A stretch of 54,089 nt of DNA, the filler included, from Squatina squatina (taxonomy: Eukaryota), in NCBI GenBank assembly GCA_031763465.1. It is 3 parts of 3 records of this genome, joined end to end, with 100 filler letters (N's around TTAATTAATTAA, not from the genome) between each part and the next. Parts side by side here need not be neighbours in the genome. Positions count along the whole stretch, not along the records: positions 24,523 to 40,662 come from JARFOE010000222.1; 2 more parts are not named here. One strand, written 5' to 3'. Positions 39,132 to 39,359 of this stretch are shown one piece after another. Made by a program: the position numbers and the translations under genes. Below the pieces are notes generated by a model. That model did not search any database. It worked only from the letters and a program-made list of their open reading frames with translations, and was not told the DNA's origin. Position 1 is the stretch's first letter. Every line of letters begins with the position of its first letter.

Positions 39132-39359
39132 GGTGCCATACGCACCAATTTGTCACTGCATAAGTGCTTTATCAGAGTAGAGGATGAGTTTGGGTCCTTT
39201 TGGACTGTTGATGAGGAGGAATTTAACAGTAGCCACCGCACTCAAAGAGGCCGACCTTGGAAATACTTTCCTGATGAGGGTATTGATGAGCATTTCTTGC
39301 ACCGAGACCTTTTGCTTGCTTATTCCACTGCTTTGCAAATTAATTCACCATCAGAATGA
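39132..39359 (+). other. FOXP2: Alternative forkhead exon homologous to FOXP1-ES exon 18b ([31 protein letters not shown]...), donor apparently lost, ORF reads to TGA at 39357-39359
   Basis: Phase-0 acceptor cccag|GGT compatible with exon 13; first 31 aa almost identical to recalled FOXP1 exon 18b; expected 170-nt end (39301) is followed by ccgaga rather than GT. Confidence 0.85.

Follow-up and report, generated by a model that had tools for sequence, protein, structure and literature searches.

We identified in FOXP2 of Squatina squatina a forkhead exon (39132-39301) which, on the strength of its sequence, is the ancestral forkhead exon B, the homologue of FOXP1 exon 18b. Its splice donor and basic wing have both been altered, and full-length FOXP2-B is likely no longer produced. 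We consider it somewhat more probable than otherwise that exon B is a pseudo-exon at a late stage of decay, set in DNA under non-coding constraint. The stretch of DNA analysed (the window) comprises 54,089 nt including filler, taken from assembly GCA_031763465.1, with positions 24,523-40,662 derived from JARFOE010000222.1. The window is a patchwork containing 43 runs of N, many of 100 N or 10 N, and the order of exons across the 100-N spacers should not be trusted. Exon B and the following exon 15 lie within one N-free stretch (38718-40662), and their linkage is therefore independent of scaffolding. The features referred to below, with organisms A and C denoting two relatives represented by contigs, are as follows.

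35756..35857, + strand: constant forkhead exon of FOXP2, first half of the domain, ending in phase 0
38584..38717, + strand: inferred site of canonical exon A, with the acceptor and first two bases legible and the remainder N
38718..39131, + strand: intron between exons A and B, YGCY-rich, with an intact acceptor CAG at 39129-39131
39132..39224, + strand: exon B codons 1-31, remainder of the forkhead fold; 30 of 31 residues equal the vertebrate FOXP1-B majority
39225..39263, + strand: exon B codons 32-44, the eroded basic wing (counterpart KRGRHIQRGRPRK); 7 of 13 residues differ
39264..39301, + strand: exon B linker to the ancestral 170-nt end; 6 of 12 residues are non-majority, in a region of natural variability
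39280..39285, + strand: putative weak cryptic donor GTATTG, the same in organism A
39302..39307, + strand: dead donor CCGAGA (CTGAGA in organism A)
39302..39359, + strand: read-through tail to TGA, its frame not conserved
39304..39527, no strand assigned: conserved non-coding block behind the dead donor
39570..39575, + strand: AATAAA, candidate poly(A) signal at chance level
39942..40011, + strand: FOXP2 exon 15, 23 residues identical to chicken and elephant FOXP2

The gene around exon B can be assigned to FOXP2, as the flanking exons carry residues of the FOXP2 type and not of FOXP1 or FOXP4. The top PDB match of the constant exon was FOXP2 (2A07, 31 of 33 residues identical), with FOXP4 and FOXP1 behind; the exon gave a Pfam Forkhead match of 33.9 bits and was identical to C. 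milii FOXP2. Since it ends in phase 0, in-frame joining to exon B would be possible. The exon at 32085-32276 was closest to FOXP2 of Callorhinchus milii (91%), and FOXP2 of the window and of C. milii have several residues in common, in 24 letters of peptide, that chicken and elephant FOXP2 lack, as is likely for a cartilaginous fish other than C. milii. Neither tblastn nor a motif search of the window detected FOXP2 exons before 25978 or after 40011. An acceptor at 38582-38583, with a pyrimidine tract and TAG/AA (the slash marks the splice site), is followed by 132 N, and no other copy of LSLHKCF was found in the + frames of the window; we infer that canonical exon A occupies 38584..38717. Exon B sits between the constant exon and exon 15 on the same strand, with exon A hidden under N save for its acceptor.

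Several other features of the window were recorded. Open frames at 13303-14094 and 22094-22390 (both + strand) lie upstream of the FOXP2 exon pieces, on the same strand and beyond 100-N spacers; they gave no Pfam match and a value of 0.95 in the Atlas to an unnamed chordate cluster, and presumably resemble exons of a neuron navigator-like gene. Beyond a 100-N spacer, at 42750-43150 (+ strand), lies an open frame of about 130 codons that contains repeats of LLKG and a part rich in Ala and Arg; it is not FOXP2. A 65-nt repeat, 86% alike, occurs at 40596-40660 and 3488-3551, and paired 44-N runs 12 nt apart are seen at 24423-24522 and 40663-40762, the positions of the filler between parts.

The initial annotation had described an 18b-like exon without a donor, and this layout was borne out. 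An acceptor CAG is present at 39129-39131, 170 nt counted from 39132 end at 39301 with CA/CCGAGA, the frame beyond the dead donor remains open until TGA at 39357-39359, and splicing from G/GTATTG at 39280 would give a 148-nt exon in phase 1. No GT in phase 2 was found between 39195 and the stop at 39357-39359. The B-type DNA-contact residues are present, with Gly at codon 1 and Thr at codon 5; isoform B of FoxP is marked in the recognition helix by Thr for His554 and, in vertebrates, also by Gly for Asn550 (PMC3002244). The Pfam Forkhead match of an intact FOXP1-B stops at about codon 30, indicating that the conserved part of exon B corresponds to the folded core. A working exon of this kind has a phase-2 GT donor at 170 nt and an intact wing, KRGRH[IV]QRGRPRK; at the donor position we found CC (CT in organism A), and 7 of 13 wing residues are changed, with a stop in organism A. 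With both donor and wing failing, exon B in FOXP2 would not be a working mutually exclusive exon of the FOXP1-ES type. The Pfam AT_hook model did not match the piece of the window at 39216-39356, and its score on an intact FOXP1-B piece (P0001) was 11.5 against a cut-off of 17.4 bits. The acceptor flank at 39108-39131, when translated, reads LLL-stop-SQ and resembles the FOXP1 read-through frames LLLLSQ, GLLSQ and LLWSQ; this hints at an acceptor context common to the FOXP paralogues.

Exon 18b of human FOXP1, or 16b of mouse Foxp1, which defines FOXP1-ES (Gabut et al., 2011, via the review PMC11701043), shares with the window exon its place, the 170-nt register, the B-type residues and 30 of the 31 core residues. 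The window exon differs in lying in FOXP2, in its dead donor, in 7 of 13 wing residues and in the loss of frame to the next exon. Isoform B of bilaterian FoxP (Santos et al., 2011) derives from the same tandem-duplicated second forkhead exon, and a 12-residue core is common to exon B of the window and the 49 distinct invertebrate segments described below. In a shark, exon B of FOXP1 is intact and annotated as spliced (catshark FOXP1-B, XP_072328365.1, P0020); that exon belongs to the other paralogue, its wing is whole (KRGRHIQRGRPRK), and its reading frame continues into the following exon.

We compared exon B with 230 B-type segments, of which 13 were dropped because of gaps or truncation, the remainder representing 58 different segments from vertebrates and 49 from invertebrates. 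The first 31 residues had been called almost invariant, and they indeed showed a single difference (D>E) from the majority of the 58 vertebrate FOXP1-B segments, a change seen also in 5 of the 58. Erosion of the wing was likewise evident, with 7 of 13 residues changed (KRGRHI>NSSHRT and R>W), one of which (I>T) had been overlooked. This contrast between core and wing (1/31 versus 7/13; Fisher p=3e-4) led us to reject uniform decay from a FOXP1-like start. Any one of the 58 vertebrate segments carries at most 3 changes among the 13 wing residues, four of the wing changes of the window are absent from all of them, and a single base separates each wing change from a codon for the majority residue. 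The vertebrate set is equally fixed in core and wing (mean majority share 0.95 and 0.96), and R-G-R-P is fixed in 49 of 49 invertebrate segments. The guess that the R>W change arose from CGG to TGG agrees with the C found at 39258 in organism A. Measured against FOXP1-B, the asymmetry is real; on its own, however, it does not call for the repurposing that it had been taken to suggest.

Sequence reads of relatives were used to follow the donor and the frame. Of 24 listed runs (14 studies), 21 share part of 39080-39640, the best share being 0.41 and none reaching half, so that the window species itself is not among them. Four runs were aligned to 39216-39900; X9 and X15, guessed to be RNA and with shares of 0.23 and 0.18, gave nothing that aligned there, and the share of X6 (0.27) was fully accounted for by its contig (0.266). 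The word share of X1, taken as an estimate of upstream conservation, gave p=0.06 and was left out of the rate comparisons. Organism A is represented by one DNA contig of depth 2.7 covering 39216-39650, that is, past codon 28, and organism C by a contig of depth 4.8 covering 39311-39625, from one study and RNA by guess only. No splice joints or loose ends were present in the four runs over 39216-39900.

Organism A has C at 39302 and T at 39303, giving CA/CTGAGA at the donor. The view of CA/CCGAGA as a mutated donor gains from this intermediate, which supports the steps GT>CT>CC, and loss of the donor is real and common to the window species and organism A. The four listed differences from organism A within exon B (G40D, R41stop through CGA>TGA, W43R and P47S) all alter the protein, one of them to a stop; in this small sample, four of four has a probability of 0.33 under neutrality. 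With the FOXP1-B majority as reference, W43 is a derived state of the window, and G40D, R41stop and P47S are derived in organism A, which implies that the common ancestor, with its donor dead, retained an unbroken RGRPRK. The contig of organism A shows 20 differences, of which seven are unlisted, probably owing to their position no more than about 30 letters from the ends of pieces, and the NSSHRT codons of organism A are therefore not readable from that listing. The 39280 donor is unchanged in organism A.

The stop of organism A, at 39252 (codon 41), means that the read-through tail is never reached there; the stop in the window is at codon 76. In organism C, one base is missing at 39325, 14 nt from the end of the contig, and the frame of the tail is shifted. 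The read-through tail of the window, which differs in all three species, is therefore not conserved as a frame, and a last exon ending with this very tail is not supported, the tail being cut or shifted in two relatives. A likeness of the tail to FOXP1 exon 19, seen by tblastn, was set aside as chance.

The region directly behind the dead donor behaves differently from the exon. Between the window and organism A, 5 of 58 nt differ in the 3' part of the exon plus donor, one substitution and one indel are found in the 224 nt of 39304-39527, and the distal intron shows 17 differences in 280 nt together with six indels. The 3' part of the exon is similar to the distal intron (5/58 versus 17/280, p=0.56) and lies above the block (p=0.002), and the block lies below the distal intron (p=4e-4), its borders having been set after the data were seen. 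Organism C gave 1 difference in 217 nt of the block against 6 in 98 nt further on; five of these six distal differences are common to organism A, and the two tests are therefore not independent. The block, about 99% identical in the two relatives, is likely held by non-coding constraint. It contains TAATTA at 39396 and AATTAATT at 39338. We found no Rfam family in 39304-39527 beyond a chance tmRNA fragment (E 0.11), no unusual fold in six stretches (z -0.7 to +0.6), and no long-range pairing partner nearby, the best duplexes being within the shuffle range; a docking-site mechanism is accordingly unsupported, with duplexes no better than shuffles. A metagenome scan for the block gave 0 hits with a first pattern, and two hits with a second pattern matched over 20 letters only and were rejected as chance. 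Ultraconserved elements are abundant in FOXP genes (PMC11276968); in view of this and of the TAATTA motif, the block could be an enhancer or a splicing element just as readily as a 3' UTR.

Among the three options put forward by the initial annotation (an alternative last exon, an NMD-coupled exon, or slow decay), decay gains most from these results, and the last exon with the tail of the window is unsupported. A last or poison exon for which the first 31-40 codons suffice, or which needs no codons at all, may be compatible with the sequences. Organism A carries the same dead +1 base and a stop at codon 41, and the 3' part of the exon has changed at the rate of the distal intron, a key comparison that consists of one contig of depth 2.7. 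According to the decay reading, the FoxP2/4 line would have received exon B at the first genome doubling, and selection at the protein level would have acted on it for long afterwards. Divergence of the first half of the basic wing would have come next; then, ahead of the separation from organism A and with RGRPRK still whole, the donor would have changed from GT to CT. Free point changes in the 3' half may have come afterwards, namely CT>CC and R>W in the window species, and G>D, R>stop and P>S in organism A. At present the exon would be skipped for lack of a donor, exon A being joined to exon 15, and rare use of the acceptor would lead to a premature stop.

The intact core does not conflict with decay of this age. 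With drift of 3-6% since the death of the donor, 2-4 changes are expected in 31 codons, and the probability of seeing none or one is 0.08-0.38, so the core requires no present selection. The probability that six adjacent wing codons changed by drift since the split is 1e-5 to 7e-5; the NSSHRT changes are therefore likely to be older and to go back to a stage at which splicing of the exon continued or selection on it was relaxed. An RGRPRK that was whole in the common ancestor indicates that free decay started late. Several observations speak against decay. The conserved part stops where the forkhead domain stops, which fits selection on the folded domain; the acceptor side is intact and YGCY-rich and the block strongly conserved, as is found near regulated exons or in 3' UTRs; and six wing codons changed against one change in the core, so that an earlier stage must be assumed.

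Exon B could alternatively be a poison exon, which we hold to be unlikely. The acceptor at 39132 would be used under regulation, and splicing from the GT at 39280, or retention of the intron, would lead to a premature stop and NMD; such an exon might, with similarly low probability, tune FOXP2 dosage where exon B was formerly chosen. The acceptor is intact, the 39280 donor is kept in organism A, and under this model stops within the exon cost nothing. Stop codons trigger NMD as a rule when they lie more than 50-55 nt before a later junction. Joining of 39280 to exon 15 is predicted to read E-A-Q-H-stop. The stop codon would occupy 39953-39955 and leave 56 nt of exon 15 behind it, which makes the product a predicted NMD target by the 50-55 nt rule. 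Poison exons as a class are flanked by conserved non-coding DNA, and the likeness to that class extends to the intact acceptor, the predicted premature stop and the conserved flank downstream; exon B differs in that its donor is putative only and in its origin as a coding, mutually exclusive exon. Direct evidence of such splicing would be a joint, and none was present on the contigs of organisms A and C over 39216-39650. The 39280 donor is weak on a rough weight matrix, and the block is without a pairing or fold signal. The upstream intron is the stretch richest in YGCY, with 16 copies, the highest of 657 N-free segments of 414 nt (median 4), but 115 of 1000 dinucleotide shuffles reached 16 copies, and the excess is not significant. 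MBNL represses FOXP1 18b through YGCY-like motifs, according to a review (PMC13044900).

It is also doubtful that exon B acts as an alternative last exon. The constant exon would be joined to 39132 and the transcript cleaved near the AATAAA at 39570, making 39304-39527 a 3' UTR. The product, itself a doubtful entity, would be a short FOXP2-B with the zinc finger, leucine zipper and a B-type core and without wing and C-terminus, which could dimerise with other FOXP proteins and damp them. The conserved part is the forkhead core and is open in both species as far as seen, and the AATAAA is the same in organisms A and C; it is at chance level, however (0.23-0.42; 0.23 within 300 nt), and conservation drops before it is reached. 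The end of the protein varies, falling at codon 41 in organism A and codon 76 here and being shifted in organism C, and the basic wing, which is fixed wherever exon B works, is gone. The contig of organism C, guessed to be RNA, spans 39311-39625 and would fit such a transcript, but its RNA status is a guess and it comes from one study. In favour of a last exon, the Drosophila gene has exon B as its 3'-most exon (PMC3002244); against it, truncation of human FOXP1 inside the domain costs the protein its nuclear import and its partners (PMC9388729).

Two further explanations can be set aside. It is highly improbable that an assembly error hides a true GT at 39302-39303 and in-frame splicing: the assembly is fragmentary, with 43 N runs, but two wrong bases would be needed here, and organism A, an independent source, shows a C at 39302 flanked on either side by more than 31 letters, plus a stop in the exon. 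Still less credible is a later move of FOXP1 18b into FOXP2 by transposition or gene conversion, never used since; the core is nearly identical to FOXP1-B at the protein level, but place and orientation are homologous, the acceptor, 170-nt length and donor remnant are in register (FoxP1 layout in PMC3002244), and the wing and linker are far from catshark FOXP1-B.

Exon B has been described as degenerated in FoxP2, P3 and P4, where no trace of such splicing was found (PMC3002244). The vertebrate search of that study covered mouse, human and zebrafish, and its main text is without shark or lamprey, to which the supplement may add species. In contrast to the account of Santos et al., exon B is here still plainly readable in FOXP2. 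Our literature search, with most subscription papers outside its scope, found no published report of exon B in FOXP2, and the portion of PMC8373072 that we consulted lists FOXP1 only. A B exon was found in 0 of 177 FOXP2-type proteins, among 527 proteins in all; for sharks this result is weak, as C. milii alone represents them and clustering at 90% may conceal a FOXP2-B isoform. None of the 124 vertebrate B carriers that include the upstream exon was of the FOXP2 type. No shark or ray FOXP2 was among the protein-cluster matches listed, and the cluster representatives in the best 150 of 409 matches were FOXP1-B, invertebrate B and A-type exons only. One segment (P0007), considered as an intact FOXP2-type exon B, was rejected as sturgeon FOXP1. 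Six predicted FOXP1-B proteins (P0116-P0119, P0021 and P0022) leave exon B early, after KRGRHxQ or WTVDDE, with the next exon in frame; these exits are either real shorter donors or errors of gene models.

The printed history is that FoxP1 alone retained the second forkhead exon after the vertebrate genome doublings (PMC3002244). The split between FoxP1/3 and FoxP2/4 corresponds to the first doubling (PMC11998571), and taken together with a readable exon B in FOXP2, this implies that the switch was inherited by both lines. FOXP2 would then have lost exon B late, separately in different lineages and far later than assumed. In shark, FoxP2 and not FoxP4 is reported to be the more expressed sister (PMC11998571), and this higher expression would fit retention of ancestral features by FoxP2 there. 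We tentatively suggest, as a possibility that falls short of even odds, that FOXP2 kept a FOXP1-ES-type switch through most of cartilaginous-fish history, that splicing of a whole FOXP2-B persists in some extant sharks, rays or chimaeras, and that loss of the donor here turned the exon into a regulated off-switch or into a last exon making a forkhead-complete, wingless FOXP2-B. The exon described here points to relatives in which a whole FOXP2-B may survive. Species at successive steps of the death of an exon (GT, CT and CC at the donor, with a stop or none) would form a series, and make it possible, as is seldom the case, to follow a mutually exclusive exon as it dies or takes on a new role.
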